Shown one piece after another: positions 3,378 through 36,975 of a DNA stretch of 64,000 nucleotides. A program made the translations under genes and the position numbers. The notes under the pieces were generated by a model that saw nothing but the letters and a program-made list of their open reading frames with translations, searched no databases and had not been told where the DNA came from. The stretch lies in the NCBI GenBank assembly GCA_034665305.1, contig JAXDFZ010000010.1, forward strand, positions 307,567-371,566. Direction: 5' to 3'. This DNA is from Blastocatellia bacterium (GTDB lineage Bacteria; Acidobacteriota; Blastocatellia; Pyrinomonadales; Pyrinomonadaceae). Each line of letters opens with the position of its first letter. The first letter of the stretch is position 1.

Positions 3378-4532
3378 ATGGATCGGTTCATCGAAACAAC
3401 TCCGTTCTTTACTGCTACGCAACGCGCGCTGGCGACGCACGCAGCTGCGTTCACTGCGCGCGACGTTGAACCGCGGGCCGCTCAAGAAGAGGCGGGTCTG
3501 GACGAATCCTTTCGGGCCTACCTTGGTCTTTTGGTCGAGGCCGGCCTCTTGCCTTTTGCGGTGACTGTTCCCGGGCAGGCCTTCGATCTGCGATCGTTTT
3601 GCATAATTCGCGAAGCGCTTTCTTACTCTTCATCGCTCGCCGATCTGGCGTTCGTAATGCAGGGGCTGGGCACATATCCCATCAGCGTCGCGGCCAGCGA
3701 ACATGTGCGTGACTTCTGGCTCGAGCGGGCGGCCACCGGAAAAGCGATCGGAGCTTTCGCGTTGACCGAAGTTGAGGCGGGCTCCGACGTAGCGGGAATC
3801 AAAACCACGGCTTGCCGCGACGGCGACGCATATGTGATTGATGGCAGCAAGCGTTTCATTTCCAACGCGGGCCTCGCTGATTTCTACACCGTCTTTGCGC
3901 GCACCGGCACCCGCGCCGACGGCCGCGCTGAGTTGTCGGCCTTCGTGGTTGGCGCGCGCATGGCGGGATTTTCAGTTCGCAAACGCACGCAGATGCTGGC
4001 CGCACATCTGATCGGTGAAATCGAATTTAACAATTGCCGCGTTCCGGCAGAGAACCTGGTTGGCGCCGAAGGCGACGGGTTGCGTATGGCGTTGCAAACC
4101 CTCGATACCTTCCGCGCCAGTGTGGGCGCTGCCGCCTGTGGTCTGGCGCGCCGGGCCCTCGATGAAAGTGTTTCTTACGCAAAGACCAGGCAGCAGTTCG
4201 GCCGGCCGCTATCGAGTCATCAGTTGATCCAGGCGAAACTGGCCGACATGGTGACGGAGCTCGATGCGGCGCGCCTGCTGGTTTATCGCGCAGCCTACTT
4301 GAAAGATACGGACCACACGAATCGCTCGACGCTGGAAGCGAGCGAGGCCAAACTGTTCGCCACTGAAGCAGCCGGACGGATTGCTGACAGCGCGTTGCAG
4401 ATACACGGCGGCTCCGGACTGGTGCGCGGCAGCGTGGTCGAACGCGTCTACCGCGACGTGCGCGCGTTGCGCATTTACGAAGGCACTTCCGAAATCCAAA
4501 AACTGGTAATCGCGAATCAACTCGTGAAGTAG
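3378..4532 (+). CDS. Acyl-CoA dehydrogenase
   Basis: 384 aa with the acyl-CoA dehydrogenase middle and C-terminal domain motifs (GSDVAGIKTTA...YRIYEGTSEIQ). Confidence 0.9.
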   Translation: MDRFIETTPFFTATQRALATHAAAFTARDVEPRAAQEEAGLDESFRAYLGLLVEAGLLPFAVTVPGQAFDLRSFCIIREALSYSSSLADLAFVMQGLGTYPISVAASEHVRDFWLERAATGKAIGAFALTEVEAGSDVAGIKTTACRDGDAYVIDGSKRFISNAGLADFYTVFARTGTRADGRAELSAFVVGARMAGFSVRKRTQMLAAHLIGEIEFNNCRVPAENLVGAEGDGLRMALQTLDTFRASVGAAACGLARRALDESVSYAKTRQQFGRPLSSHQLIQAKLADMVTELDAARLLVYRAAYLKDTDHTNRSTLEASEAKLFATEAAGRIADSALQIHGGSGLVRGSVVERVYRDVRALRIYEGTSEIQKLVIANQLVK

Positions 4533-5189
4533 GACAGACATTCCTGTCTGTTCCAGTGAGCACCAATCTCAGTGGCCATTTTCACAAGGCCTTGGACTGG
4601 TGAAGAAGAGCGGCAAATATGGTTACATAAACAAAAAAGGAGCCGTTGTTATTCCTTTTCGGTTTGATGGCGCAGGCGATTTTGCGGAGGGCTCGGACTA
4701 GTGTTAATTGCAAGCAAGTATGGTTACATCGATAAGACTGGCAAGATCGTAATTCAACCACAGTTTGAGCGCTGCGGTGGTTTCTCTGAAGGATTGGCCC
4801 GATTTGTTGATAACGACAAAGTTGGTTACATAGATCGGACGGGAAAAGTTGTGATCGCGCCCTGGTTTGAATCCGGAGAACCCTTTAGCGAGGGGCTGGC
4901 GGAGGTTCAAGTCGACAGAAAATGGGGCTACATAAACAGAAGCGGGGAAATCGTTATAAAGCCCAACTTCGTAAGGACTGGACAGTTCTCGGAAGGCTTG
5001 GCACCGGTTTCACTGGGGAGCCATGGTGGCTTTATCGATACTACTGGTCGAATGGTCATCGAGAATATGTGGTGGGATATGGGCGAAGAATTCTTTGATG
5101 GGCTTGCATTGATGGAGACCAGTTACGGCCTGGCTTACATAGACAAGCGAGGGAACCACATTTGGAGGGAGAAGATCGCTCATCGTTGA
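4528..5189 (+). pseudogene. WG (KWG) beta-repeat protein remnant, 5'-truncated and carrying a -1 frameshift near 4690
   Basis: The 4701-5189 ORF holds about five WG repeats (KYGYIDKTGKIVIQPQFERCGGFSEGLA...). The same repeat continues upstream in another frame (4528-4701: ...WPFSQGLGLVKKSGKYGYINKKGAVVIPFRFDGAGDFAEG). Adding one G in the gagggctcgg run restores ...DFAEGLGLVLIASKYGYID. The upstream frame opens right at the acyl-CoA dehydrogenase stop with no start codon and no signal peptide. Confidence 0.5.
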
Positions 5190-5252
5190 GGGTTCATGGT
5201 TACACCCTGGTAACTCTGCGGCGCAGTCATTTCCGAAGCATTTCTTGAAAGA

Positions 5253-6635
5253 GTGAACGAGACAACTTCAAAGAGAACCCAACTGGAGTCCCATCTCGCC
5301 CGCCGTCTCGGCCTTTTCGATACCGCGATGCTGGTGATGGGCGGGATCATTGGCTCCGGGATCTTTATCAATTCCTACGTGGTTGCTCAGCAGGTCCATT
5401 CTCCGATCCTGATTTTGGGCGCCTGGGCGGTTGGTGGTTTGATTGCGCTGGCCGGCGCGTTTATCTACGCCGAGCTCTCGTCGCAGACTTCGGCTTCCGG
5501 TGGCCAATACATTTATTTGCGCGACGCGTTTCATCCTTCCATCGCGTTTCTCTACGGTTGGGCGCTGCTGCTGGTTATTCAAACCGGAGGCATGGCAGCG
5601 GTAGCAATCACCTTCGCCAAATATTTTTTGGAAGTGGGCCACCTGTCTGGTGGCGATCGTAACGCGGCGATCGTCGCGGTGATTGCCTTGAGCGCGCTCA
5701 CGCTGATTAATTGCCTCGGCGTGCGGGCGGGAAGTACGACGCAAAACGTCTTCATGATTCTGAAGTTGATTGCCATCGCTGTGCTGGTTGCCTGGGGATT
5801 GACGGTTAGCGACTCAGCTCCCAGCGAAGGAATCACTGCTATTGCCGGGGGGACTTCGGATGTGTGGGCCATGTTGACGGCATTCGGCGCCGCACTTATT
5901 CCAGTGCAGTTTGCTTATGGCGGCTGGCAAACATCCTGCTTCGTCGCCGGCGAAGTGCGCGAGCCGCACAAGAACCTGCCGCGTGGATTATTGCTAGGCG
6001 TGTTGGGTGTGATTGCGGTTTATCTTTCAGTGAACTTCGTTTATGTCTACGCGTTGGGACCGGCGACCCTCGCGCAAACGAAGACTCCGGCGTCGGCCGT
6101 GATGCGTCTGGCACTAGGTGAAGGCGGCGCGCGCTTCATTGCCATCGGGATTGCCGTTTCCACTCTCGGGTTTCTAAGTCAAAGCATGTTGACGGCGCCG
6201 CGAGTTTATTTTGCGATGGCGCAGGATCGTGTGTTCTTCAGCGGGCTGGCGCGTTTGAATCGCGCGCGCGTGCCGGCAATGGCGATTGCATTACAGGGCG
6301 CGCTGGCGATTGTAATTGCGCTTTCCGGCCGCTACGAGCAGATACTGAATTACGTGGTTTCGGTTGATGTAGTTTTCTTTGCGCTCACGGCGCTGTGCGT
6401 GTTCCTGTTCCGAACTCGGGATCGTGCGCGCGGCGAAGCTCGGGTGGATACGTTTCGTATTCCCGGCCATCCTTTGACGACAATCTTTTTCATTCTCGCC
6501 TGCGGCGCGGTAATTGTGAGTACCGTTTACCAGTATCCACGCAACAGCGCGATCGGCCTGGGAATCATGCTGGCAGGGTTGCCGGTTTACTTTTTGTGGC
6601 GCAAACGGCCGGTCGACTCCGATCCTGTCAAATAG
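5253..6635 (+). CDS. APC family amino acid permease
   Basis: 460 aa with about 12 predicted transmembrane segments and an N-terminal GGIIGSGIF motif typical of amino acid/polyamine/organocation transporters. Confidence 0.85.
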   Translation: MNETTSKRTQLESHLARRLGLFDTAMLVMGGIIGSGIFINSYVVAQQVHSPILILGAWAVGGLIALAGAFIYAELSSQTSASGGQYIYLRDAFHPSIAFLYGWALLLVIQTGGMAAVAITFAKYFLEVGHLSGGDRNAAIVAVIALSALTLINCLGVRAGSTTQNVFMILKLIAIAVLVAWGLTVSDSAPSEGITAIAGGTSDVWAMLTAFGAALIPVQFAYGGWQTSCFVAGEVREPHKNLPRGLLLGVLGVIAVYLSVNFVYVYALGPATLAQTKTPASAVMRLALGEGGARFIAIGIAVSTLGFLSQSMLTAPRVYFAMAQDRVFFSGLARLNRARVPAMAIALQGALAIVIALSGRYEQILNYVVSVDVVFFALTALCVFLFRTRDRARGEARVDTFRIPGHPLTTIFFILACGAVIVSTVYQYPRNSAIGLGIMLAGLPVYFLWRKRPVDSDPVK

Positions 6636-6638
6636 ATT

Positions 6639-7733
6639 ATGATCAAACAGTCTGCTTACATGCACTGGGCCAAAACGCGACCGCGAGTCAAATATGACCT
6701 CGCCCTGAGCGGCGTTCTCAATCTGCCTTTCAGCGAACTGGACGTAGAACTCGCGGATCTGGATCTCAACGGACCGAATCCCTACGGTTATCCGCCGCTG
6801 CTCGAAGCGTTGGCAACCCATTGCAAAGTCACGCCGGAAATGGTCGTCACGGTTTCGGGTGGCACTTCGATGGCCAATCACCTGGCGATGGCGGCATTGC
6901 TGAATCACGGTGATGAAGTGCTCGTGGAAGAGCCAACTTACGATCCGCTGCTCGCCGTGGCGGAGTACCTCGGAGCCCGTATCAAAAGATTTGCGCGCCC
7001 GTTCAGCACCGGCTTTCGCATTGATCCCGAAGCGATTCGCGAACAGATCACCGAACGCACGCGGTTGATTGTTCTCACGAACATGCATAACCCGAGCAGC
7101 GTCCTGACCGATAACGAAACCTTGAAAGAAATCGGATTGCTGGCGCGAAGCGTCGGCGCGCGCGTGCTGGTCGACGAAGTTTATCTGGAGGCATTGTTCG
7201 AAGCCGGACCGTCTTCATGCGTTCATCTGGGGCCGGAGTTTGTGGCTACCACCAGTCTTACCAAAGGCTATGGCCTCAGTGGGTTGCGTTGTGGCTGGAT
7301 CCTCGCAGCGCCTGAATTGGCGCAAAAATTTTGGCTGTTGAAAGATATCTTCGAGGGTGTTGGGCCACATCCGACCGAACGTTTAAGCGTAGTGGCGTTG
7401 AAACAGTTGCGTCGCATCGCCACTCGCGCGAAAAATATTCTCCGAACTAATCGCGCCGCGCTTAATCAATTCCTGGAATCACAGGACGAGCTTCAGGCGG
7501 TGCCAACTGAATCGGGGACGACGATCTTTCCGCTTCTGCGCCACGGCAGCGTCGATATGCTTTGTGATTTGCTGAACCGCAAGTATGAGACGGCCATTGT
7601 GCCCGGGCGATTTTTTGAAATGCCACAGCATGTGCGCGTAGGAATCTGCTGTGAGCCGGAACTCTTTACCGGCGGCCTGGAAAGACTGGGCGCGGCATTG
7701 TCTGAACTACCGCAGACGGATCAGAGGCGATGA
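6639..7733 (+). CDS. Pyridoxal phosphate-dependent aminotransferase, class I/II fold
   Basis: 364 aa with aminotransferase class I/II core motifs. The start lies 4 nt after the permease stop, and its stop overlaps the next start (ATGA). Confidence 0.75.
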   Translation: MIKQSAYMHWAKTRPRVKYDLALSGVLNLPFSELDVELADLDLNGPNPYGYPPLLEALATHCKVTPEMVVTVSGGTSMANHLAMAALLNHGDEVLVEEPTYDPLLAVAEYLGARIKRFARPFSTGFRIDPEAIREQITERTRLIVLTNMHNPSSVLTDNETLKEIGLLARSVGARVLVDEVYLEALFEAGPSSCVHLGPEFVATTSLTKGYGLSGLRCGWILAAPELAQKFWLLKDIFEGVGPHPTERLSVVALKQLRRIATRAKNILRTNRAALNQFLESQDELQAVPTESGTTIFPLLRHGSVDMLCDLLNRKYETAIVPGRFFEMPQHVRVGICCEPELFTGGLERLGAALSELPQTDQRR

Positions 7734-9775
7734 GAATCAGCATCATTGGCGGTGGGCCAGCCGGGCTTTACTTCGCCATCCTCATGAAACGGACCGATCC
7801 GGCGTACGAAGTCACGGTCTATGAGCGGAATGGCCCAGACGATACATTCGGCTGGGGTGTAGTCTTTTCCGGAAAGACGCTAGCGAATCTGAAAGCGGCT
7901 GACGAAGAATCGTTCCGGCAAATCACCGATAGTTTTCAAACCTGGGACAACGTAGACGTCCGGCACCGCGATCAGCAGGTTACGATTCGCGGTAATCATT
8001 TTTCCGGCATCGCGCGTCTGGAGCTGCTGCGCATTCTGCATCGCCGCTGTCTGCAGTTGGGCGTCGAACTGAAGTTTCGCGCTGATCTGTCTCCTGCAGA
8101 TATTGCAGCGTTGCGAGACACTTCGAATCTGGTAATCGGTGCTGACGGTGTGAACAGCACGGTGCGCCGGGAATACGCGAAGGTGTTTGAACCGACGCTC
8201 GGAGTCCGCACGAATAGATATATTTGGTACGGCACACACCGCTTGTTCCATGGTTTGACGCTGACCTTTCGCGAGAATCCAGACGGCGTTTTCGCCGCGC
8301 ATTCATACAAATTCAACGAATCCACCAGTACGTTCATCATTGAGTGTGATGAACAAACCTGGAGGCGCGCCGGTTTCGCGGAGATGACGGACGCGGCGAC
8401 CCGAAGTTATCTGGAGCAGGTGTTTGCGCCGGACCTCGACGGCCACTCGTTGTTATCCAACAATTCAAAATGGATTAACTTTCTGCTCGTAAAGAACGCG
8501 AGTTGGAGTTACGGCAACATGGTCTTGCTGGGTGACGCGTTGCACACGGCGCATTTCTCGATCGGCTCAGGAACTAAACTAGCGTTCGAGGATGCGATCG
8601 CTCTACACAAGTGTTTTGCCGGGTCGGCAGATGTGCGTTCTGCTTTGGAAGAATTCGAAAAAGTGCGGAAGCCGGTCATCGAAGAATACCAGGCCGCCGC
8701 CTACGACAGCATGGTTTGGTTTGAGAACGCGAGGCAGTACATGCACCTCGATCCGGTCGAGCTAGCGTATGTGTTGATGACCCGCAGTGGGAAAGTCGAT
8801 CGCGACAGTTTGCAGCGGCGAGATCCGGAGTTTGTGGCGAGGTATGAGGCGTCGCGCGAATCGAATTGCTTCCGCGCTGGGACCAAGGTCAAAACAGGAA
8901 AAGGGTGGCGGGTAATTGAAGAAATTCAACCAGGCGAACTTGTTTTGTCTTATGAGAACGGCTTGCGCATGGTGGTTAGTTTACAGAAGCGACCGCATGT
9001 TGGAAGGTTACTTGGGCTTCGTTTGCGATCAAACATTGGGATTGTTTGGGTGACGCCAGACCAATGCTTTCTTGCCCCCTCTCCGCAAGCGGAGAGGGGG
9101 TTGGGGGGAAAGGAAGAGGCGCCAGCTAACCCCACCCCAAACCCCTCCCCGCGGGCGGGGAGGGGGAAGAACGCTGAGGTTCAGTGGAAACTCGGTGGAA
9201 CTTCTCCGACAACCGCTTACTTAGCACGGCAGTTACGAAAGGACTCAACCTCGGCAGAAAGGATTCTTTGGGAGTGTTTGCGCGGGCGGCGTTTAGCTGG
9301 TGCCAAGTTCCGCCGACAACATCCACTGGGAACCAATTATATAGCTGACTTTTATTGTTCTGAGGTGGGGTTAGCGATTGAGCTCGATGGAAGCGTGCAT
9401 GACTCTAATAAGGGGCGATGGGCCGACGGGATTCGACATCGACAACTGGCAGTGAGCGGCGTCAAGTTCTTGCGCTTTGAAAACTCACGGGTCTTCGACG
9501 ATTTAGATGGTTTATTACATCAGATCGCGCAATATCTCGTCGCTTCCAACCCCCAACCTGAGGGTAGTGAGGAACGACCAAAATGGCGAATAGCGAAAGA
9601 CCTTCTTCCCGGGGACCGACTGATCATTGACGAACACGGGCGCGTAGAATTCATCGAGAGTGTCGATCAGATTGTTGTTAATGAATCCGTTTACGATCTG
9701 GTGCTCGAACGGAACAGCCCATTTATTACCGAAGCGGGAGTTGTGCGCAGCCTTCATACGAGTGAAGTACAATAG
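7730..9775 (+). CDS. FAD-dependent monooxygenase. It is the N-terminal half of a 2-aminobenzoyl-CoA monooxygenase/reductase, also called a salicylyl-CoA 5-hydroxylase-like bifunctional enzyme. It is fused in frame to an intein-like Hint domain that encloses a DUF559 endonuclease.
   Basis: Residues 1-379 ([34 protein letters not shown]...[22 protein letters not shown]) match the monooxygenase half of the bifunctional aminobenzoyl/salicylyl-CoA monooxygenase-reductases. From Cys380 (nt 8867) the sequence switches to Hint block A ([28 protein letters not shown]) and block B (IVWVTPDQ). It then reads through a REP element, a DUF559 domain and Hint C-terminal blocks ([19 protein letters not shown]) before the stop. 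Confidence 0.7.
   Translation: [681 protein letters not shown]
8867..9760 (+). other. Intein-like (Hint) element with a nested DUF559/Vsr-like endonuclease domain, probably degenerate
   Basis: Block A begins with Cys. Block B reads TPDQ where the canonical motif is TXXH. The C-terminal block reads GVVRSLHT where VVHN is expected. Only 4 codons (SEVQ) follow as a C-extein before TAG. The DUF559 region (about 9185-9543) has the hallmark YIADFYC...LAIELDG...H...D...R...VLRFEN motif. Confidence 0.6.
9075..9166. repeat. GC-rich triple-palindrome REP-like element family A, copy 1. It is inserted in frame inside the intein-like ORF.
   Basis: CCCCCTCTCCGCAAGCGGAGAGGGGG ... AACCCCACCCCAA ... CCCCTCCCCGCGGGCGGGGAGGGG. 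The first and third modules are perfect palindromes. It is translated as [31 protein letters not shown] without a stop. Confidence 0.8.
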
Positions 9776-9781
9776 TATTGA

Positions 9782-11335
9782 TTATCCCTGCCACTTGGGC
9801 GCCAGTAATCGCCGGCGGCCATCATTCGCCAAGCTTATCCCTGATTCATCGAGCTCTTTTCGATCCCAAAGTTTGCAGGTCACCTGCTTGTGCGCCTGGT
9901 CCAGGGCCTCACAGTAGTTCGTATAAGTGCACCGCCTGACTTCATCACCGCGTCCGAGTCTGACTTTCAAAAACCAATCAGGATCGGCGAGTGCCTGGCG
10001 GGCGAGGCCAATAATGTCGGCCTCGCCGCGTTGCAGGATCGCTTCGGCCTGATCGAAGACAGTGATGCCGCCGGTTCCAACAACGGGAACATGAAACCCG
10101 GCATCATTGACGGCGGCTTTGATCGCACTAGCCAACGGCATCGACCGGCCAAATGGTCCAAGTTCATCGGACAGGGTCGTCGGCATGCATTCGTATCCGC
10201 TGCGGCCGGTGTACGGATAAACAGCTTCACCGACTTTTGGTTGCTGCGCGTCTTCGAACTTTCCGCCTTTCGAAAGTGAAAGAAAATCGAAGCCGGCTTT
10301 CGCGAACTCAATAGCGAAGTATCTGGCATCGTCCAGGCGGTTGCCGCCCGCAATCACTTCGTCACCCAGGAAACGCACCCCAACAACGTAAGCGTTTCCG
10401 ACGCGTTCGCGCACGGCACGATAAACCTCCAACGGTAGCCGCGCGCGTTCCGGGCGGGTTCCGCCATAACCATCACTACGGTTGTTCAGCGCGCTGAGAA
10501 AACCCGCCATCGTGTATGCATGGGCGTAATGAAGTTCCACGCCGTCAAAGCCCGCTTCGCGCGCTCGCCCTGCAGCATCAGCGAAAATTGCCGGCAGTGT
10601 TTGTGGGAGTTCCGCGATGTGCGGCAGGTGAGTGTCCGTTACGCGTTCGCGATAGCCGAGCTGCAAAGATTCCAGTTCCCGTTCGTTCAACACACTGGCG
10701 ATCACTTCGTCAGTAGCGTCCTCGAGAAAAGTACGTAACGCGCACTCGCTTGCGCTGAGCCAGTGATCATCGCCGGTCAATCGCGCCAGACGCTTACGAT
10801 GGCCCTCCGTCACTTCCAGAAAGCGTTGGAAGAACTTGCCCGGATCCGGTCGCCGTTTGATCGCCAGGAAATCGAGGATTTGAATGAACAAACGCGTTTC
10901 GCCATCGCTGGCGTCGCGCACCGTCTCGACGAGTTTCCGCAGGCCGGGAATAAATCGATCATGGCCAATGCGTAACAGCGGCCCACTGGGAATGTCGCGC
11001 ACACCGGTGGCCTCCACCACGATCGCGCCCGGCTTACCTGCAGCGAAGCGGCGGTACCAATCCAGGTTTTCCTGTGTGACAAATCCATCGTCGGTGGCCC
11101 GCCAGGGCACCATGGCCGGCACCCAGGTGCGGCTCGCGAGTGTGATGGGACCGATCGCGATCGGCCGGAACAGCAGTGAGCGAGCGGCCTCCTCGGCGGT
11201 GGGCCATCTTGTTTCCGGAAGCGGATGCTTGATTGGGTTAGCAAACTTCCACATAGAGTCTGTCAATTTACCACGGCTAACGCTCATGGAGTGCGTCGGC
11301 GACGGCGCTTTAGATATACGACCCTGCCGGCTCAT
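9782..11335 (-). CDS. NADH:flavin oxidoreductase of the Old Yellow Enzyme family. It matches the reductase half of the 2-aminobenzoyl-CoA monooxygenase/reductase and is encoded on the opposite strand.
   Basis: An OYE TIM-barrel follows the motifs LLFRPIAIGPITLASRTWVPAMVPW...GFDGVELHYAHAYTMAGFLSALNNRSDGYGG...VGVRFLGDE. The long open frame extends 5' to 11440, into REP copy 2, where only a TTG is available. ATG candidates lie at 11335, 11287 and 11254, so the true start is uncertain. The stop at 9782 is 6 nt from the stop of the convergent monooxygenase-intein ORF. Confidence 0.7.
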   Translation of the reverse strand: MSRQGRISKAPSPTHSMSVSRGKLTDSMWKFANPIKHPLPETRWPTAEEAARSLLFRPIAIGPITLASRTWVPAMVPWRATDDGFVTQENLDWYRRFAAGKPGAIVVEATGVRDIPSGPLLRIGHDRFIPGLRKLVETVRDASDGETRLFIQILDFLAIKRRPDPGKFFQRFLEVTEGHRKRLARLTGDDHWLSASECALRTFLEDATDEVIASVLNERELESLQLGYRERVTDTHLPHIAELPQTLPAIFADAAGRAREAGFDGVELHYAHAYTMAGFLSALNNRSDGYGGTRPERARLPLEVYRAVRERVGNAYVVGVRFLGDEVIAGGNRLDDARYFAIEFAKAGFDFLSLSKGGKFEDAQQPKVGEAVYPYTGRSGYECMPTTLSDELGPFGRSMPLASAIKAAVNDAGFHVPVVGTGGITVFDQAEAILQRGEADIIGLARQALADPDWFLKVRLGRGDEVRRCTYTNYCEALDQAHKQVTCKLWDRKELDESGISLANDGRRRLLAPKWQG

Positions 11336-11426
11336 AGACTCGAAAGCCCACCGTCTCAATCGTGTAACAGGAACGAATCCAAAGCGGTGTCGCGCTGCGC
11401 TTGCCCCGGACTCCAGATGTTCTTTA

Positions 11427-11516
11427 CCCCCTCTCCGCAAGCGGAGAGGGGGTTGGGGGGAGAGGATGCGACGGCGCTAACCCCACCCCCAACCCCTCCC
11501 CGCACGCGGGGAGGGG
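11427..11516. repeat. GC-rich triple-palindrome REP-like element family A, copy 2
   Basis: Same three modules as copy 1 and in direct orientation (CCCCCTCTCCGCAAGCGGAGAGGGGG ... CCCCTCCCCGCACGCGGGGAGGGG). It lies between the OYE gene's 5' region and kynU. Confidence 0.8.
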
Positions 11517-11571
11517 CTTACTCTGTGGTAAATTATCGTATCGAATAATTTGATAGCAGACGGAGTCTCCG

Positions 11572-12759
11572 GTGACCGATGATCTTCTCAAGTGGCGTGA
11601 CGAGTTTCCCATCCTCGAAAAGGCTGTCTATCTAATCTCGCACAGTTTGGGCGCCATGCCGCGCGCGACGTACCAGCAGCTGCAGGAGTATGCGGAGACA
11701 TGGGCCACCCGCGGTGTGCGCGCATGGGCCGAGGGCTGGTGGGAGATGCCGGTTACGGTGGGGAATGACGTGGGGCGGGTTATCGGCGCTGAGCCGCGCA
11801 CCGTCGTCATGCATCAGAACGTTTCTATTTGCCAGTCGCTGATTCTTTCCTGCTTTCAGCCGACACCCGAGCGAAACAAGATCGTCTATTCGGAGCTTAA
11901 TTTTCCGACGGTGATGTACGTCTATGAAGCGCACGCCCGCAATGGCCGCTTGCGCATTGAGACGGTCGAGTCAGACGACGGCATCACCGTGCCGCTGGAC
12001 CGGATGTTGGCGGCGATTGACGAAACTACTTTGCTCGTTCCGATCTCTCATGTTCTGTACAAGAGCGGTTTCTTGCAGAACGCGAAGGCCATTATCGAAC
12101 GCGCGCACGAAGTAGGCGCCATGGTGGTCCTCGATGTCTACCAATCGGCCGGCACCGTTCCCTTCAGTGTTACAGATCTGAACGTGGACTTCGCCACCGG
12201 CGGATCGGTTAAATGGTTGTGTGGTGGACCAGGGGCCGGGTATCTCTATGTGCGTCCCGATTTAATTCCCACGTTGCAACCGCAAACAACGGGTTGGATG
12301 GCCCATGAAGCGCCTTTCGCTTTTGACACCGACCTGCGCTATGCGCCGGGCATCGAAAGGTTCCTTCACGGCTCGCCTTCGATTCCGGCGCTGTACGCTG
12401 CGCGCAGCGGGTACAAAATCATCAACGAAATCGGTGTGCCGGCAATTCGGGAAAAAAGTGTGCGCCAAACAACGCGCCTGATTGAGTTGGCCGACGAGGC
12501 GGGATTTCATGTAACCAGCCCGCGCGATCCGGCGAGTCGCGGCGGCACGGTTACGATCGCGGCTGATCATGCTGCCGCAGTCACGCGAGAACTAGTGCGG
12601 CGCGAAATAATCGTCGACTATCGGCCGGGCGCCGGCGTGCGCATCTCGCCGCATTTTTATACCACTGACGATGAAGTCGAACGCGTCATCAGTGAGATGA
12701 AGATTATCAGGGACACACAGAGCTTTGAAACGAGCGACAAGGCCGGAGCCGCATATTGA
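11572..12759 (+). CDS. kynU: Kynureninase (PLP-dependent, aminotransferase class V fold)
   Basis: 395 aa with a GTG start. Kynureninase-like layout includes the KWLCGGPGAGYLYV region, matching the Pseudomonas kynureninase YKYLNGGPG. Confidence 0.75.
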   Translation: MTDDLLKWRDEFPILEKAVYLISHSLGAMPRATYQQLQEYAETWATRGVRAWAEGWWEMPVTVGNDVGRVIGAEPRTVVMHQNVSICQSLILSCFQPTPERNKIVYSELNFPTVMYVYEAHARNGRLRIETVESDDGITVPLDRMLAAIDETTLLVPISHVLYKSGFLQNAKAIIERAHEVGAMVVLDVYQSAGTVPFSVTDLNVDFATGGSVKWLCGGPGAGYLYVRPDLIPTLQPQTTGWMAHEAPFAFDTDLRYAPGIERFLHGSPSIPALYAARSGYKIINEIGVPAIREKSVRQTTRLIELADEAGFHVTSPRDPASRGGTVTIAADHAAAVTRELVRREIIVDYRPGAGVRISPHFYTTDDEVERVISEMKIIRDTQSFETSDKAGAAY

Positions 12760-12792
12760 GACCCGGAGCGCGCTTGCTCTTAGGCAATTAAC

Positions 12793-12875
12793 GGGGCAGT
12801 AGCCCGACCGTGAGGGAGGGCTCCGATTGAGTGCATGCGAGGGGGAGCCCTCCCTTACGGTCGGGCTACTGCCCC
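12793..12875. repeat. Near-perfect 32-bp inverted repeat (stem-loop) between kynU and kynA
   Basis: GGGGCAGTAGCCCGACCGTGAGGGAGGGCTCC, a 19-nt loop, then GGAGCCCTCCCTTACGGTCGGGCTACTGCCCC, with 1 mismatch. Confidence 0.8.
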
Positions 12876-12921
12876 GCTTCGCGGTAACCATCGAGCCGTC
12901 GCACTTCAAAACAGGTAATCA

Positions 12922-13824
12922 ATGACTAAAGACTACGGCGCCGAGGCCCCGCTCTCCTACAACAAGTATCTCCGCGTGCCGGAGCTGATCGACCTGCAGA
13001 GTTTGCTGTCCGATCCTGCGCACCATGATGAATTGCTCTTCATCACAGTTCATCAGGCTTACGAGCTTTGGTTCAAGCAAATCCTCCATGAGATTGACGC
13101 AGCGATCCGGTTGATGGATGAAGATCGAGGCGCGACCGCTGCGCGCGCGCTGCTCCGGGTGGTGGAGATCGAAAAACTTCTGGTCCAGCAGATTCATATT
13201 CTGGAAACTATGACGCCGGTAAACTTTCTCGCCTTTCGCGAAGAACTGAATCCCGCCAGTGGCTTTCAATCAATGCAGTTTCGCGAGATTGAGTTTTCTT
13301 CCGGTGCGAAAGATGAAGGCGTCCTGCGCCAGGCAGCAACAGATGAATTTGCGCTCGGGCGACTACAAGCTCGCATGGAAGCGCCGTCGCTGGGCGACAC
13401 TTTTTACGCGCTGTTACGCCGCCGGGGTTTTGATGCGCCCGCCGATGACGTGCCACCCGATAAGACCGAGCGCGGGCGACCGTACGGCAAGCGGGTTCGT
13501 GCAGTCCGCGACATCCTCGCTGATTTTGAAAATCACGAGCAGGAGTTTGCCCTTGCCGAAGCGCTGCTGGCACACGACGAATGGTTTTCCCTCTGGCGAT
13601 CGCACCACATCAAAATGGTCGAGCGCATGGTGGGTGCTAAAAGAGGGACAGGAGGATCGGAAGGCGTAGGGTATCTTCAGACTACGCTGACGAAAAGGTT
13701 CTTTCCGGAAATCTGGGAAGCTCGCACGTACCTGACGGCAAGCAGCCAAGAAGCCGGATGCCCGTTTGCCGGCGATCAGGCATCACAAAATGAAGAACCC
13801 TCATCCCCTGTCAAAGGAACATGA
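12922..13824 (+). CDS. kynA: Tryptophan 2,3-dioxygenase
   Basis: 300 aa with YNKYLRVPELIDLQSLLS...HHDELLFITVHQAYELWFKQILHEI...GFQSMQFREIEF...KRGTGGSEGVGYLQ, matching bacterial tryptophan 2,3-dioxygenase block for block. Confidence 0.9.
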   Translation: MTKDYGAEAPLSYNKYLRVPELIDLQSLLSDPAHHDELLFITVHQAYELWFKQILHEIDAAIRLMDEDRGATAARALLRVVEIEKLLVQQIHILETMTPVNFLAFREELNPASGFQSMQFREIEFSSGAKDEGVLRQAATDEFALGRLQARMEAPSLGDTFYALLRRRGFDAPADDVPPDKTERGRPYGKRVRAVRDILADFENHEQEFALAEALLAHDEWFSLWRSHHIKMVERMVGAKRGTGGSEGVGYLQTTLTKRFFPEIWEARTYLTASSQEAGCPFAGDQASQNEEPSSPVKGT

Positions 13825-15428
13825 CGATCCAATTCCCAGAGCGGTTCAACATGGCCGACTACTTCCTCTACCACAATCTGGAGGAAGGACGCGGCGATAA
13901 AGTCTGTCTTTATTACGAAGATCAAACCTATACGTATGGCGATGCGGCGCGCATGTCGAATCGCACCGGTAATGCGCTACGTGAGTTAGGTGTCGAGGTT
14001 GAGGATCGCGTTCTGCTGGTCATGCCGGATTGTCCGGAATTTGTCTGGACCTGGTTTGGCGCGGCGCGCATCGGTGCGGTTATCACGATGGTCAATCCAT
14101 TGTTGCCGGTGGATGACTACAAATACTATCTCGATTACACACGGGCCCGCGTGGCCGTGATTCATCGCTCGCTGATCAAAACTTTCACGGAAGCAGCCCG
14201 CGACACCACTTTTCTGCGCGCGGTTGTTGTTGTCGGGGACGACGAAGCCGCGACGGATCGGAGTCCCTTTCCCGGGGGCGAGAAGAGCGCAGTTACCGGG
14301 AAAGCGCGCTGGGTTGCCTTCAATGAAATAGTGTCAGCGCAGCCGCCCATCTGCCGCGCCGCCGACACGCACCGTGACGACATCGCAATCTGGCTTTTCA
14401 CTTCCGGTTCCACCGGCCACCCAAAAGGCGCCGTGCACCTGCAACACGACTTGCCTTACAACACCGAAGTTTTCGCCAAAGCGACGATGGGCGTTAACGA
14501 AAACGATCTGACAGTTTCGGTTCCGAAACTCTTTTTCGGCTACGCCACGGGAACCAATTTGCTGTTTCCATTTGCAGTCGGCGGAGCCACCGCGCTCTTT
14601 TCAGAACGTTCGACGCCGGAAAAACTTTTCGAAGTGATCCATCGTTACCGCCCGACAATTCTGACGACCGTCCCGACAATGATTAACTCAATGCTGAATG
14701 CCGACAACGCGCGGCAGCATGATCTGTCGTGCCTGCGGTTTTGCTATTCGGCGGGCGAAGCTCTTCCGGTCGAGCTTTATCACCGTTGGAAGGAAGTCTT
14801 CGGCGTCGAAATTTGCGACGGCATCGGGTCCGCTGAAATGTTTCATATCTACATCACCAATCGACCTGGTGATGTAAGGCCCGGAAGCCTGGGACGGACG
14901 GTTAACGGATACGAGGCCCGAATTGTCGACGCCGCAGGAAAAGAAGTTGCCGTGAACGAGATGGGCACTTTGAAGATCAAAGGCGACTCGGCCGCACTCT
15001 GTTACTGGAACGCGCATGAAAAGTCGAAAGAGGTGTTCGCGGGAGATTGGTGTACGACCGGCGACCAGTTTCACGCAGACTCTGAAGGATACTATTGGTA
15101 TCACGGTCGCACCGACGACATGCTGAAAGTCTCGGGTGTTTTCGTCGCTCCGGCCGAGATTGAGAATTGCCTGTTGCAGCATCCCGCGGTTTTGGAATGC
15201 GCAATCATTGGAGCTGCGGACGGTGATGGGTTGATAAAGCCGAAAGCGTTCGTCGTCCTTCGCCAAAGGGCAGAAGTCTCAACAAACGATCAACTAGCCC
15301 AGGACTTAAAAGATTTTGTGAAGTCTCGCCTGGCTCCTTACAAATACCCGCGCTCGATCGACTTCGTTTCATCACTCCCAAAAAACGATCGCGGAAAAAT
15401 CGATCGCAAGCAATTGAAGAGTGAGTAA
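13821..15428 (+). CDS. Benzoate-CoA ligase family protein, most likely 2-aminobenzoate (anthranilate)-CoA ligase
   Basis: 535 aa with an adenylate-forming enzyme AMP-binding motif (TSGSTGHPKGAV) and an N-terminal NMADYFLYHNLEEGRG typical of the benzoate-CoA ligase clade. Its start overlaps the kynA stop (ATGA). Confidence 0.8.
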   Translation: MTIQFPERFNMADYFLYHNLEEGRGDKVCLYYEDQTYTYGDAARMSNRTGNALRELGVEVEDRVLLVMPDCPEFVWTWFGAARIGAVITMVNPLLPVDDYKYYLDYTRARVAVIHRSLIKTFTEAARDTTFLRAVVVVGDDEAATDRSPFPGGEKSAVTGKARWVAFNEIVSAQPPICRAADTHRDDIAIWLFTSGSTGHPKGAVHLQHDLPYNTEVFAKATMGVNENDLTVSVPKLFFGYATGTNLLFPFAVGGATALFSERSTPEKLFEVIHRYRPTILTTVPTMINSMLNADNARQHDLSCLRFCYSAGEALPVELYHRWKEVFGVEICDGIGSAEMFHIYITNRPGDVRPGSLGRTVNGYEARIVDAAGKEVAVNEMGTLKIKGDSAALCYWNAHEKSKEVFAGDWCTTGDQFHADSEGYYWYHGRTDDMLKVSGVFVAPAEIENCLLQHPAVLECAIIGAADGDGLIKPKAFVVLRQRAEVSTNDQLAQDLKDFVKSRLAPYKYPRSIDFVSSLPKNDRGKIDRKQLKSE

Positions 15429-15456
15429 CGGAGGCTCTACGACATCAGTTCTTATT

Positions 15457-15496
15457 GGCCAGATGGAAGACATTCCGTCCTGGCCTTTTGCTTTTT
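15457..15496 (+). terminator. Rho-independent terminator after the aryl-CoA ligase gene
   Basis: GGCCAG-loop-CTGGCC hairpin followed by TTTTGCTTTTT. Confidence 0.55.
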
Positions 15497-15499
15497 AGT

Positions 15500-15988
15500 T
15501 TAGGGAGCACAAGTTCCGGAGGGATGCCCGGCGGTGGCTTCGCAATTATTTGAACAGCAGTTGCCGTTGCCCTGACAGGACTCACCCGGCTGCGCGCAAC
15601 TGGAAACGGCATGGACTGTCGGAGCGACGATAGAGGTAATTAGCGGCACCGCGATTACAGCAGCCAGTCCGATCTTTCGCATGACTGATCTACGGGAAAG
15701 GCGATTCAGATTCGCTGGTCGGTTCCAACGCTCCTGCAGCAAATCAAACTTTTCCAACTGGTCCAACGCGAGCCAGATCATCTCATCAGCGACGGGCGCG
15801 CCAAAATTTGTTTCAAAATGTGAGTGCAACTCCGAGAGCGTAGTGCGGCCGTCACAGTGTTTCCAAACAAATGCCGCAGTCTGATTCAGACAGTGTGCTT
15901 TGTCGCGGTCGAGATCGTAGATAAGAACTTCGTCAGGTAATTCCTGAACCACCAGGCGTTCCTGCCTGGCGGCGGGTAGATTTCTCAT
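15500..15988 (-). CDS. PqqD-family domain (RiPP-recognition-element-like) fused to one transmembrane helix and a C-terminal six-cysteine, knottin-like tail
   Basis: Residues 10-85 (LVVQELPDEVLIYDLDRDKAHCLNQTAAFVWKHCDGRTTLSELHSHF...) are PqqD-like. A hydrophobic helix follows (IGLAAVIAVPLITSIVAPTV), then C-x6-C-x5-CC-x3-C-x10-C (CAQPGESCQGNGNCCSNNCEATAGHPSGTC). Confidence 0.6.
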   Translation of the reverse strand: MRNLPAARQERLVVQELPDEVLIYDLDRDKAHCLNQTAAFVWKHCDGRTTLSELHSHFETNFGAPVADEMIWLALDQLEKFDLLQERWNRPANLNRLSRRSVMRKIGLAAVIAVPLITSIVAPTVHAVSSCAQPGESCQGNGNCCSNNCEATAGHPSGTCAP

Positions 15989-16213
15989 ATCGGGGCGAAC
16001 CTCAGTTCAAAATTGGGAGTAGTGCTTTTAGCCCAAAACCCCCACGCCAGTCAATATCCTTCGCCGGACCCGTCGCCGCCCATTTTTGTTAGCCGACGTT
16101 GAACGCAGAGCCCCATTGACTTAAGCGAGTTCCAAGGAAATTGCCTAGTGGGATTTTTGGAATTAGCGGAAGGATTTCCTGTTATACGGAAAGACTGTGA
16201 TAGGCGTCGCGGA

Positions 16214-17626
16214 TCAAGAGTTCCGGCGATCGAGGTTGTAATCACGTAAGCGGCGATACAGCGTGGAAGGAGAGATGCCGAGGATCTCCGCAGTCTTGCC
16301 GCGGTGCCAGCCAGTTTGTTCCAGAGCCGACAGAATCTGTTGCCGCTCGACTTCTCGCAAGGACGTTGGGGTTCCGCTATCTGAAGTCGATCCACTCATC
16401 GACTGCGATCCGGCTGCGACTGAAAAACTCGTTAACGAAGCAGAACCAACCGAGGGGCGCGCGACTTCGGGTGGTAATTCGTCAAGCGTAATGAGGTTGT
16501 TGTTTGCAAGTAAAACGCCTCGCTCGAGGCAATTACGCAATTGTCGAACGTTGCCGGGCCAGCTGTAGGCGCGCAACGCCGCGCGTGCTTCCGGCGTGAT
16601 TTCGGGAGGTGCCGCACTCAGCTGTTTCAAAGTGTGTTCCGTCAGAGGCTCGATGTCTTCCGGCCGTTCCCGGAGTGGCGGCAGGCTGATCTGAAATCCA
16701 TTGATGCGATAAAGCAAATCAGAACGAAACGAACCATCCGCAATCACAGTATCCAGGTTGCGATTGGTAGCGGCGACAATGCGCACATTAACTTCGACCT
16801 TGCGCACTCCGCCGACACGAAAAAACGTACGGGTCTCAATTGCGCGAAGCAGCTTTGCCTGCAACGGGGCCGGCAGTTCCGTTACTTCGTCAAGGAACAG
16901 CGTCCCGCCATCCGCTAATTCGATCAGACCTAGCTTGCGTCCCTTAGCTCCTGAAAATGCACCTGCTTCATAACCAAACAACTCAGATTCCAGCAGCGAT
17001 TCCTGAAAGGCGGCGCAGTTCAAGTCGATAAAGGAAGCGTCAGCGCGGGTCGACAAACGGTGGATCGCGTGGGCGATCAACTCTTTGCCGGTTCCGGATT
17101 CGCCGGTGATCAAAACCGATGCATCGGAAGGCGCAACTCGCTCGACCAACCGCACGGCTTCGCGCATTGTCTGGGAAACAGAAACGATTTCTGGCAGCGC
17201 CGATTGGCGGGCGAGTTGCTCTCGCAACCTTTGATTGTCCACGCGCAAGCGGCGCTTTTCGGCCGCCTGCCGGACGCGAACGTCGAGTTCATTGATGGTG
17301 TAAGGTTTGGTGAGGTAATCATACGCACCCATCTTCATGGCTTCGACTGCTGTTTCAATCGTGCCATTGCCGGTGAGCATGATTACTTCGGGAGGGTTAG
17401 GCCGTTCGTGCACTCGCCGCAACAGTTCCATCCCATCCATGCGCGGCATGTTGATATCGCAGAGCAGAACGTCGACGTTGCTTTCTTCTAAACGTCGCAA
17501 GGCTGCCTCGCCGTCGGGCGCAACCTGTACGCGATAGCCGAGGCGCTGCAATTCCTTCTGCAACACCATGCGCAGGTTCGTTTCATCTTCGGCTACCAAC
17601 AGGCGTGTCGTCTGGGCTTCGCTCAC
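16214..17626 (-). CDS. Sigma-54-dependent Fis-family response regulator (NtrC-like)
   Basis: REC domain (LLVAEDE...D), an AAA+ sigma-54 interaction domain with GESGTGKE and GAFTGA-like motifs, and a C-terminal Fis helix-turn-helix. Confidence 0.9.
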   Translation of the reverse strand: MSEAQTTRLLVAEDETNLRMVLQKELQRLGYRVQVAPDGEAALRRLEESNVDVLLCDINMPRMDGMELLRRVHERPNPPEVIMLTGNGTIETAVEAMKMGAYDYLTKPYTINELDVRVRQAAEKRRLRVDNQRLREQLARQSALPEIVSVSQTMREAVRLVERVAPSDASVLITGESGTGKELIAHAIHRLSTRADASFIDLNCAAFQESLLESELFGYEAGAFSGAKGRKLGLIELADGGTLFLDEVTELPAPLQAKLLRAIETRTFFRVGGVRKVEVNVRIVAATNRNLDTVIADGSFRSDLLYRINGFQISLPPLRERPEDIEPLTEHTLKQLSAAPPEITPEARAALRAYSWPGNVRQLRNCLERGVLLANNNLITLDELPPEVARPSVGSASLTSFSVAAGSQSMSGSTSDSGTPTSLREVERQQILSALEQTGWHRGKTAEILGISPSTLYRRLRDYNLDRRNS

Positions 17627-19692
17627 GAAATCTGATCTCCGTCCTGACTGGCGGGAAGCGTAATGGTAAACGTCGTGCCGGCGCCTACCTTTGATTCGAC
17701 CTCTAACTTGCCTCCGTGCTCCGTTAAAATACCATAAGAAACCGCAAGCCCCAGCCCGGTGCCGCTGCCTATCTCTTTAGTAGTAAAAAATGGGTCGAAA
17801 ATCTTCGTGAGATTTTCCGGAGGAATTCCAACGCCGGTGTCGGTTACCTCGATTAGTACGTGCGGACCCTCGCGGCGAGTGCGCAATATCAATCGACCGC
17901 CAAGCGGCATCGCGTCTATCGCATTTGTCGCCAGGGCCACCACGGCCTGCTGCAAGTGACCTTCGTCGCCGGACACCGTAACTATGTCGTCTGAAGCCTG
18001 TATGACGATCTCAATCTTGTCGCCGCGTTGTTGATGAGTGACCAGACGTGCGGCCGAATGCGCCACGTCGTTAACGTTTACGCGGGCATGACGACCGGCC
18101 CGCGTGCGACTGAAATCAAGCAGTCCATTCGTAATGGTTTTGCAGCGGAATGCTTCATCGCGAATTAACCCTAAGTATTCGCGCAGGCTGTCCTCTTCAC
18201 CTGACGCATTGAATGCTCCTTCCCGGACGCGCGTCTCCAGCGCCTCAGCGCAGGCAGCAATAGTCGCCAGCGGGTTGTTAATTTCATGCACTATTCCAGC
18301 GGCCAGGCGCCCGACCGCGGCCAGTTTTTCCGCGCGGGCCACAGCGCGATCGGCTTTTACGCGGCTCGTAATTTCTTCACCGACGGTAATGACGTGGGTG
18401 ACTTTCCGGCTGCCTTCGGCGCGCATTGGAATCTTGCTGATCAGCCAGTGCTTCGTTTCGCCAGTCTCGCTTACGGATTCCTGTTCGATGCGTTCGATCT
18501 GGCCGGTTTCAAAGACGCGCGCGAACTCCTGTTCCAGTACATCGCGCTTCTGTCTGGTAAGCACTTCGAACACACTACGGCCCAGAGCCGCGCCACGGGG
18601 AATGCCAAGTTCGCCGAGTTCGCGGTTATGGTTCCAGGCAACGACTCGATATTCACGGTCTACAGCGTAGAGCGAGATCGGTAAGCTATCGATAATTGCT
18701 CCTGTGAAGCGCTGTTGTACTTCTGCTTCTGCAGTGCGGCGATCGACTTCCTGGGCAAGGGTCGCAGCAGACTCGCGGGCCGCGAGGTACAAGGAAGCGA
18801 TGTGCGAAGCCAGCGCCGCTTGTTGCGCCGCAGCATCGCTCAGGCGACATTCGGTCTCGCCGCAGTCATCGATGGAATCGAAAGCGATTATTAGTGCCCC
18901 TTTTGTTTTGCCGCCGAAGCGGATGGGCGAAATGTACTCGACGCCATGAATTTCATCGCGCAAGAGAAAGCGGCTAGCGTCGACGGATCTGGTCGGGGTG
19001 ACTGATGCCGCGTCCGCCAGCCAACCAGCGAACCGCTCAGCGTTAATCATCGACATTCCCTCGGCGCTACCTTCGCGATCGAATACGCATACGGCACTCG
19101 AGCCTTCGCTATCAACGATGGCGGCGCAGAGTGCGGCGCCGGTTGCTTCGTAGGTGCTGCCCGCCACACGTCTGACTACCTGGCCCGGATCTAGCGCGCG
19201 TAGCAAGCCCCGTCCTAAATCGGCCAGGAAACGTAACTCACGATTACTGCCCAGCAACTGCCACTCGCGTTTGGCGGCACTTAAGTGCGAATTGACTCGG
19301 GAGAGCAGCTCAGCGGGAGAGGATGGTTTGATGATGTAGTCGTCGGCCCCGGCAGCGAAAGCTTCAACCTTACTGGTTTCGGTGTTGCTGGCAGAAAAAA
19401 TTACTATCGGCAGTTGCTTCATAGCCGGCTGGGCCCGCACCAGGCGACAAAGCGCAAGGCCATCTACTTCCGGCAACTCAATGTCGAGCAGTACTAGATC
19501 GCATTGCTTCTGGAGAAGCATCCGCAACGCGGCCGGAGCGTCATTCGCAGTCAAAGCACGATGGCCCGCCCGTTCAAAAGTGCGACACAGACTTTTACGC
19601 GTGCCGGCGTCGTTATCGACGATCAGCAGCGTCGCGCCAGTTGAGAGTATTGGGTCGTTAGTTTTAGCCGAAGAAGCTGACATGCTTCGCAA
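17623..19692 (-). CDS. Hybrid sensor histidine kinase with an N-terminal receiver domain
   Basis: N-terminal REC (LLIVDND...D...K), central sensory (PAS/GAF-like) region, HisKA H-box ([10 protein letters not shown]) and HATPase_c (GTGLGLAVS). Its 5' end overlaps the regulator gene by 4 nt. Confidence 0.85.
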
Positions 19693-35817: not shown

Positions 35818-35925
35818 ATACCTTCTCTAATCGCAAGGATGATCCACCGTCTTCTGGAATTAATGGATGGCCGCGATGTTAGCATCCGGCTCAGCACAGT
35901 CGCAACGCGCAGTCAGAACCGCCAG

Positions 35926-36969: not shown

Positions 36970-36975
36970 CTCCCC

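Follow-up and report, generated by a model that had tools for sequence, protein, structure and literature searches.

The yeast HO endonuclease is an intein-derived protein, a domesticated LAGLIDADG enzyme that has lost splicing and retains its nuclease along with a Hint-like domain. Vsr-like nucleases have been described as free-standing genes between the halves of split inteins, with hairpins upstream (Dassa 2009, PMC2677866), and a 2025 survey reported them only with split inteins or antisense in phage inteins (bioRxiv 10.1101/2025.01.02.630785). I-Bth0305I is the prototype of the EDxHD homing endonucleases (Taylor 2011, PMC3239194), the ShiLan domain of a phage methylase is a homing insertion that lies in frame and does not splice (PMC11855218), and REPINs and other REP elements are dispersed short palindromes tied to the single-copy RAYT gene that they flank (PMC3116915). 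For inteins carrying a nuclease of the DUF559 family, our literature search found one passing mention (PMC9403480) and nothing else. Here we describe such an element in a stretch of 64,000 nucleotides (the window) from a Blastocatellia bacterium of the Pyrinomonadaceae (GenBank assembly GCA_034665305.1, contig JAXDFZ010000010.1), where it makes up residues 380-681 at the C-terminal end of a flavin-dependent monooxygenase. The original prediction, made from the DNA letters only, had called it a decaying intein with a nested homing-endonuclease gene. The element is probably a degenerate member of a family of inteins with a nested DUF559 domain, derived from a methylase intein, dead for splicing, anchored at the tail of its host protein and propagating by homing.

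A Hint fold of the intein type interrupted by a DUF559 nuclease

The monooxygenase and the element share one open reading frame (ORF) on the forward strand (7730-9775, 681 aa), and the same 681-aa protein was called as a single gene on a 514-kb soil-type metagenome contig from JGI (Joint Genome Institute). Residues 380-674 form an intein-type Hint fold that is split by a DUF559 nuclease domain. The N-terminal Hint half, with block A starting at Cys380, lies at 8867-9073 on the forward strand and was placed by Pfam Hint_2, a profile match to the RecA intein and alignment. The C-terminal half (9578-9751, forward strand), with a degenerate block F and Arg-Ser as the equivalent of block G, was placed by alignment with the family and with the RecA intein. 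A tail of seven codons, LHTSEVQ, and the stop codon follow (9752-9775, forward strand) and represent the C-extein equivalent, as judged by alignment with other copies at the same site, among them one that ends AHN/CGNKP before its stop (here and below, a slash within a protein motif marks the splice junction).

Profile searches of residues 380-681 supported the predicted Hint domain. Pfam Hint_2 matched with E 1e-6, its 29.6 bits lying just above the cutoff at 28.4, and the match to Intein_splicing was non-significant (E 0.16). A Hint-only profile, made from both Hint halves of the window copy and eight relatives with the nuclease removed, matched the mini-intein structures of Mycobacterium tuberculosis RecA at E 9e-11 to 5e-10, spanning blocks B, F and G, and all of its members also matched the Pfam models Hint_2 and Intein_splicing. 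The RecA intein was the closest solved relative in this search. The alignment to it is the one proposed in the original prediction (VIGLRIAGGAIVWATPDH), and it runs through block G. The bacterial intein-like (BIL) domain of Clostridium thermocellum (2lwy) matched more weakly (E 1.6e-5). A Hint domain of BIL or Hedgehog type, which had been named beforehand as the alternative to an intein, was rejected because the similarity is closer to the RecA intein and the relatives are canonical inteins. An AlphaFold model calculated from the family alignment gave a pLDDT score (predicted local distance difference test) above 90 for both Hint halves, 57-90 over most of the nuclease and less than 50 in the linker (element residues 76-99). 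In Foldseek the model matched mini-inteins and BIL domains across the insertion, with template modelling (TM) scores on the mini-intein target of 0.73-0.81.

The nuclease is inserted between intein blocks B and F (9185-9559, forward strand), and its predicted identity as DUF559, a Vsr-like PD-(D/E)XK nuclease, was borne out. Pfam PF04480 matched ORF residues 497-603 with E 3.9e-28 to 1e-27, and sequence comparison reached PDB entry 3hrl with E 5e-12 and also aligned the domain to the nuclease core of PvuRts1I. In Foldseek, the modelled domain matched the DUF559 structure 3hrl with TM 0.87 and the homing endonuclease I-Bth0305I (3r3p) with TM 0.81 at 24% identity, that is, a Vsr/EDxHD-like fold. 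The active-site motif is intact (ADFYC...IELDGSVHD, pattern D...ExD...H), and of the DUF559 columns in which the family does not vary, the window copy and its closest relative, P0001, keep 19 out of 19 (alignment with 16 relatives). The nuclease of the window copy is probably active and selfish. A Pfam scan of the ORF found no NUMOD or other DNA-binding family, and the Hint domain may take over the DNA-binding role of the missing NUMOD region. No further DUF559 or Hint copies were found in the 64-kb window.

Loss of the splicing residues

The block A nucleophile is present as Cys380 (codon 8867-8869). Block B reads VWVTPDQ, with Gln (9062-9064) at the position of the catalytic His, and alignment with canonical relatives, which read TPDH or TPEH, confirmed the substitution that had been predicted there. 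Block F reads ERNSPF, compared with EEDHSF in the family, and lacks both the Asp and the His, a loss missing from the earlier list of degenerate residues. Block G reads VVRS, compared with AHN in the family. The loss of the terminal His-Asn had thus been recognized, and only the count of trailing residues had to be changed: the equivalent of His-Asn is Arg673-Ser674, so that seven residues (LHTSEVQ) and not four (SEVQ) precede the stop. The +1 residue is Leu and provides no Cys, Ser or Thr nucleophile. In the window copy and its closest relative, P0001, all splicing residues are gone except Cys1 and the block B Thr. The window copy is predicted to be unable to splice, and the splicing defect that had been proposed is evident in the alignment from the lost block B His, block F Asp and His, His-Asn and +1 nucleophile. 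The description as a decaying intein holds for the splicing chemistry, but not for the reading frame, the Hint fold and the family-invariant nuclease residues, which are all kept.

A family of DUF559 inteins with its main home in DNA methyltransferases

A search with residues 380-681 found proteins at 39-63% identity that cover the whole Hint-DUF559-Hint module. Identity between the window element and fully canonical elements, whether these lie in PF01555 methylases or at the monooxygenase site, is 42-63%. Several relatives are canonical, with Cys1, TP(D/E)H, EEDHSF and His-Asn, followed by Cys+1 and GSGTTAYVAEQWGRRWITxD. An exhaustive profile search, followed by Pfam scans, identified the methylase hosts as full-length PF01555 DNA methyltransferases (P0118, P0122, P0125, P0134, P0137 and others) that the intein interrupts within motif I (DPx/CGSGTT), at model position 188/190. 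A family of DUF559-containing inteins therefore exists, and motif I of the PF01555 DNA methyltransferases is its main home. The simplest reading is that a single lineage jumped once from a methylase into the 3′ tail of the monooxygenase gene in Pyrinomonadaceae/Blastocatellia.

Some copies of the family are nearly solitary (L007:885-2084 and the P0009 and P0010 contigs). At L007 the methylase extein around the intein measures only about 23 and 38 residues, with an ABC permease gene downstream, and the P0009 copy, flanked by 22 and 12 residues, sits between EF-P and an MFS transporter; these three copies look like inteins stranded outside any host protein. In a metagenome-assembled genome (MAG) of Candidatus Baltobacteraceae, a MuF/portal-like prophage gene (L012:4975-6987, forward strand) carries a canonical Hint intein (PAHPS/CCPPGT...VVHN/CRCTT) whose insert encodes a Vsr-like nuclease (AIEIDGGCWH) antisense (6115-6813, reverse strand).

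Copies at the monooxygenase site and their distribution

Contig look-ups and a GTDB genome scan placed the element between the monooxygenase and a convergent oxidoreductase gene in several assemblies of Pyrinomonadaceae and Blastocatellia, and among GTDB species representatives the scan, run with a 4-sequence Hint alignment, found only 5 loci. An intact copy exists at the same site in a related genome: in L008 (MAG SMAG_U4337) the element is in frame and fully canonical (AREN/CFPAGT, TPDH, EEDHSF and AHN/CGNKP followed by the stop), with a C-extein of five residues. That the window copy has no C-extein to ligate, as had been predicted, is right in so far as the +1 nucleophile is absent, but no large C-extein was ever lost. 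Because the intact copy has such a short C-extein, the data support an element that was a tail-end intein from the outset and always remained one, derived from a methylase intein. The L003 element is 87% identical to that of L008, and a +1 frameshift, present in three independent assemblies, leaves the enzyme with a separate stop and the element with a separate ATG. All other copies listed here have Gln for the block B His: L013 (Cys1, HN/SRTD and stop), L010 (Cys1, HN/N), L011 (Cys1, QN/A), P0002 (Cys1, HN/R), L002 (Ser1, RS and stop) and the window (Cys1, block F ERNSPF, RS/LHTSEVQ and stop). The position-1 nucleophile is present in all readable same-site copies, as Cys in eight lineages and as Ser in the L002/L005 lineage.

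Empty and filled sites were counted in metagenomes, where a scan that used the C-terminal half of the enzyme as its query gave 80 close loci, 66-84% identical. Only one of them (L013) has the element, and in 44 the oxidoreductase gene is convergent right after a normal monooxygenase stop, with no element between. The intergenic gaps in empty loci are mostly 40-150 nt and hold unrelated palindromes. One further locus, L083, contains a frameshifted N-terminal remnant of about 150 nt (CFRAGTMIKTE, then a stop), which is a deletion scar, and the L005 element is disrupted. The element is an insertion and not the ancestral state. No conserved target sequence was seen downstream of the insertion point in the empty alleles, where the DNA is hypervariable, with unrelated terminator-like palindromes.

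The filled loci are scattered in the host phylogeny (862 columns of monooxygenase plus oxidoreductase, 200 bootstraps), where they occupy at least four places and are monophyletic in none of the 200 replicates. The window groups with L013 (100%), L005 with the empty loci L017 and L065 (99%), L010 stands apart as a further group, and L011 joins L003 and L008 (83%) in a group that sits inside a set of empty loci (94%). In the tree of the elements, copies at the monooxygenase site form one clade relative to the methylase inteins (77% support), and neither of the host sister groups supported at 100% and at 83% appears in any of the 200 replicates. Elements are 46-62% identical between host lineages that are 71-84% identical, with the one exception of L003/L008, the closest pair of hosts (90%), whose elements are 87% identical. 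The element is thus sporadically distributed, and its phylogeny is incongruent with that of its hosts.

The persistence of the position-1 nucleophile raises the question of a domesticated autoprocessing domain, in which a BIL- or Hedgehog-like cleavage at Cys380 releases or modifies the monooxygenase to the benefit of the host. Cleavage at Cys380 may still take place, at most inefficiently, because every same-site copy that is readable there keeps the nucleophile; in addition, most copies are in frame with the monooxygenase, and BIL domains are among the top Foldseek matches. However, 44 of the 80 close relatives have a normal stop and no element, the L003 element is frameshifted away from the enzyme, the block B His, which activates the N-terminal junction, is Gln, and the sequence is nearer to the RecA intein than to BIL domains. 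We regard a domesticated function of this kind as very improbable.

The simplest reading of the same-site copies is one jump, followed by horizontal spread at the same site among related genomes and then by decay and loss, the pattern of a homing cycle. Under this homing model, the element would be translated as a C-terminal extension of the monooxygenase, because in most lineages it has no start codon of its own, and the product would stay unspliced. The two Hint halves would fold together, with the nuclease in the loop between them and joined by a disordered linker. The nuclease would cut element-free alleles of the monooxygenase/oxidoreductase junction, after which the element would be copied in by recombination, and the Hint fold would probably be kept as a scaffold or as a DNA-binding and recognition module, as in PI-SceI and yeast HO. 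Splicing is dispensable for the host because the enzyme is complete before the insertion point. Such tolerance of failed splicing accounts for the disappearance of the catalytic His from block B, of Asp and His from block F, of the His-Asn pair and of the +1 nucleophile, and also for the occurrence of splicing-impaired (Gln) variants in many host lineages.

Selection on the element

Purifying selection was observed in one close pair, L008/L003, the only one with unsaturated synonymous divergence (dS), where the ratio of nonsynonymous to synonymous divergence (dN/dS) was 0.19 for the N-terminal Hint half, 0.15 for DUF559 and 0.32 for the C-terminal Hint half. In distant pairs dS was saturated and dN was 0.3-0.57. 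All pairs that include the window are saturated, which makes their ratios unreliable and leaves dN and amino-acid conservation as the informative measures. The frame of about 300 codons is free of stops at about 50% amino-acid divergence, and its intactness argues against neutral decay.

These results bear on whether the element is instead an inert relic, a tolerated C-terminal appendage in which intein and nuclease are both dead and without activity and which is heading for deletion. Nearly all splicing residues are indeed gone, decay and loss do occur at the site, as seen in the L083 remnant and the disrupted L005 copy, and the lineage of the window and P0001 is the most divergent. A relic is nevertheless hard to reconcile with the stop-free frame, the retention of all family-invariant nuclease residues, the dN/dS of 0.15-0.32 in the single unsaturated pair, the confident Hint fold in the model and the presence of splicing-impaired (Gln) variants in many host lineages, and we consider it unlikely.

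Several points weigh against a splicing-dead element that spreads by homing. The right junction differs between filled lineages and the downstream region is hypervariable among empty alleles, a pattern that departs from the precise homing of textbooks and could also be explained by a single old insertion and many subsequent losses. Within the monooxygenase-site clade, the element tree has a star-like shape and poor resolution. The lineage of the window and P0001 (60% identical to each other) is only 46-55% identical to the other copies, a divergence that could reflect relaxed constraint on the window copy, and the sole pair with an unsaturated dN/dS, L008/L003, is splicing-competent. Loss of the block B His alone does not prove loss of N-terminal activation, given that the Tko CDC21-1 intein compensates for a missing block B His.

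A GC-rich double-hairpin repeat next to the nuclease

A GC-rich double-hairpin DNA repeat of about 95 nt (9072-9165) was recognized between block B and DUF559 by its direct and inverted repetition at 11424-11520, where a second, intergenic copy is 79% identical over 78 nt and has identical stems. The first copy is translated in frame as the disordered linker (...PSPRAGRG). The stems are CCCCCTCTCCGC..GCGGAGAGGGGG and CCCCTCCCCGC...GCGGGGAGGGG, and the folding z-scores relative to shuffled sequence are -5.8 for 9072-9165 and -5.4 for 11424-11520. Both stems are nucleotide-invariant in 8 copies from six lineages, while loops and spacer vary, and dS in the linker is 0-0.33 while the flanking codons are saturated. 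Rfam has no family for the repeat and gave only sub-threshold matches to microRNA-precursor hairpins. With up to 3 mismatches allowed, no copies were found in 407 kb of element-free loci, and extra copies were found in element-bearing loci. Besides the two in the window, copies of the repeat lie at L005:2210-2300, L011:2027-2110 and L002:2609 and 3800-3880. At L005 the repeat alone is inserted in frame in an amino-acid permease gene (SPSPHAERGIGGE...PSPRAGRG).

The association of hairpins with DUF559 extends beyond the monooxygenase site. Peptides derived from the hairpins (PSPxGEG, SPQAERG) flank DUF559 in the methylase inteins too, and DUF559 insertions that are in frame, have no Hint domain and are flanked by hairpin-derived peptides occur in LeuRS, MetRS-beta, HsdS, a type ISP restriction enzyme and an FGE-sulfatase. 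A free-standing cyanobacterial DUF559 gene (Leptolyngbyaceae CCMR0082) is bracketed by direct repeats of about 130 nt (L093:1300-1490 and 1895-2025; L094:1984-2091), each with two hairpins that share their CCCTCTCC/GGAGAGGG core with the acidobacterial repeat. Among 112 ORFs from an unbiased sampling of DUF559 homologues, 13 continue into hairpin-type peptides downstream and 5 do so upstream. No link between DUF559 and hairpin repeats was found described in the literature searched. Together these observations suggest that DUF559 and the hairpins are a mobile unit that supplied the nuclease of the intein. It is possible, though we propose it only tentatively, that DUF559 with flanking double hairpins (core CCCTCTCC...GGAGAGGG, in Acidobacteria and Cyanobacteria) is an unrecognized REP/RAYT-like mobile cassette that enters many proteins in frame, seeds solo repeats and delivered the endonuclease of the intein, which then left its methylase host and persists as a non-splicing, tail-anchored homing element.

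The same repeat allows a different view of what the nuclease does, namely that it serves the hairpin and not the monooxygenase site: a REP/RAYT-like cassette of DUF559 and hairpins would have entered the intein loop and would spread or maintain the repeats genome-wide, the intein being one landing place. The invariance of the stems where neighbouring codons are saturated, the restriction of repeat copies to element-bearing loci, the solo repeat in the permease gene, the Hint-less insertions and the repeats around the cyanobacterial gene all favour such a role. The DNA-level basis is a few loci, however, the hairpin-type peptides accompany only a minority of the sampled ORFs, the window has two repeat copies only, and GC-rich hairpins could be terminators or unrelated miniature inverted-repeat transposable elements that favour linkers. 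A hairpin-serving nuclease would also be compatible with homing at the monooxygenase site. We find it rather doubtful as the explanation of the locus.

The proteins with these Hint-less DUF559 insertions or with DUF559 fusions were P0053, P0045, P0061, P0026, P0022, P0017, P0086, P0101 and P0103. The fusions join DUF559 to the HisF N-terminus in Mucilaginibacter and relatives, and to glutamine-amidotransferase (HisH-like) and amino-acid-kinase domains in other proteins.

The host monooxygenase and its locus

The N-extein equivalent, residues 1-379 (7730-8866, forward strand), is a monooxygenase dependent on flavin adenine dinucleotide (FAD), as identified by NCBIfam PRK08255 and Pfam FAD_binding_3. 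Residues 1-376 match positions 1-384 of the 768 in PRK08255 with 470 bits, and also match VioD-like flavin monooxygenases. PRK08255 is a bifunctional salicylyl-/2-aminobenzoyl-CoA hydroxylase-reductase, and the window monooxygenase corresponds to its N-terminal half. The convergent gene (9782-11254, reverse strand), whose stop codon lies 6 nt from that of the element, encodes a flavin mononucleotide (FMN) oxidoreductase of the Old Yellow Enzyme (OYE) type with 490 aa (gene call, Pfam Oxidored_FMN, NCBIfam), which is the functional partner of the monooxygenase; the two are thus separate convergent genes in the window and fused in PRK08255 proteins. Neighbouring genes encode tryptophan 2,3-dioxygenase, kynureninase, an AMP-dependent ligase, enoyl-CoA hydratases and acyl-CoA dehydrogenases, and the cluster at 4701-18000 looks like a pathway for degradation of tryptophan through kynurenine and anthranilate to aminobenzoyl-CoA.

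This layout allows the element to be read as the relic of a fused gene, in which an intein sat at the domain junction of a PRK08255-type monooxygenase-reductase until an inversion between the hairpin repeats separated the reductase. The monooxygenase does correspond to the N-terminal half of PRK08255 and its convergent neighbour to the OYE-type half, and the two hairpin copies bracket the OYE gene. On the other hand, inverting 9166-11423 puts DUF559 and the C-terminal Hint half on the wrong strand, and the element derives from methylase inteins. A broken monooxygenase-intein-OYE fusion produced by hairpin-mediated inversion is ruled out by the convergent two-gene layout, already present in element-free relatives, and by the end of the canonical L008 copy, HN/CGNKP followed directly by a stop codon; what chance such an origin retains is negligible.

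Intein-free orthologues of the monooxygenase end 2-20 variable residues past the motif RRDPEF..YE, which places the insertion point downstream of everything that is conserved in the protein. In many empty-site loci (L048, L076, L021, L035, L070 and others) the monooxygenase frame enters a different intergenic palindrome, and this read-in gives recurrent tails such as TGSAGVPPA or RSTDYADFTD, each before a stop. The C-terminus of the monooxygenase is evidently free to vary. Other families of short palindromic or tandem-like dispersed repeats, for example of the GATTGCAGATTGCGGA and AATCTCATTAGCACCGCACTTCAGTGCGGTG types, are intergenic in the window at 1001-1127, 35922-37067, 39945-40046, 44462-44567, 52463-52568 and 58132-58181.

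Comparison with known systems

In the usual view, inteins persist because their sites are conserved motifs of essential function, in which an imprecise loss kills the host and the intein has to splice. This locus represents the opposite regime. Its copies in a dispensable tail form a series from canonical to splicing-dead, in which the Hint fold and the nuclease are kept and have spread among genomes, and such a same-site series offers a direct way to tell the parts that an intein needs for its own propagation from those that the host needs. As in the endonuclease inteins PI-MtuI of M. tuberculosis RecA and PI-SceI, Hint blocks A, B, F and G are found, the nuclease lies between B and F, and the whole is in frame in a host gene; relatives of the window copy have Cys1, TxxH and His-Asn/Cys, and the best sequence match is the RecA intein. 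Unlike in those inteins, the nuclease is DUF559/Vsr-like and not LAGLIDADG or HNH, the insertion is in a non-conserved C-terminal tail with a C-extein of 5-7 residues and not in a conserved active-site motif, and in the window copy block B has no catalytic His, block F no Asp and no His, block G no His-Asn, and the +1 nucleophile is absent.

With the EDxHD/Vsr-like homing endonucleases such as I-Bth0305I, the window nuclease shares the Vsr-type fold (3r3p, TM 0.81) and the association with inteins, and like the Vsr-like nucleases of PMC2677866 it has hairpins immediately upstream of its coding region. It differs in being fused in frame inside a contiguous intein, in belonging to Pfam DUF559, closest to 3hrl, and in having no NUMOD repeats by Pfam. 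A Vsr-like/DUF559 nuclease in frame in contiguous inteins, with a well-populated home in PF01555, adds to the split-intein and antisense arrangements that recent surveys report. The ShiLan domain is similar as an in-frame insert that stays in the host protein and has a homing-like distribution, but it has no Hint domain, and its HNH nuclease is encoded out of frame.

The REP/RAYT systems offer a possible analogy for the hairpin repeat and DUF559, as both combine palindromic repeats with a nuclease-type gene, although RAYTs are HUH tyrosine transposases and the DUF559-hairpin association rests on few loci. To our knowledge, no mobility mechanism is known for DUF559. A nucleotide-conserved hairpin beside the domain is a first functional handle on this very large, uncharacterized family, and the link may explain the 'PSPxGEG'-type peptides in LeuRS, MetRS-beta, HsdS, the type ISP enzyme and the permease.

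C-terminal Hint domains of the BIL and Hedgehog types resemble the window element in their variable or C-terminal position, in having no ligation-competent C-terminal junction and in that cleavage is possible. The element is nonetheless nearer to true inteins (E 9e-11 against 1.6e-5), descends from methylase inteins, contains a nuclease and has no block B His. Yeast HO is likewise an intein-derived protein that retains a Hint-like domain with its nuclease after the loss of splicing, but whereas HO is a separate gene with a host function, the window element is fused to an unrelated enzyme and is distributed sporadically, like a selfish element.

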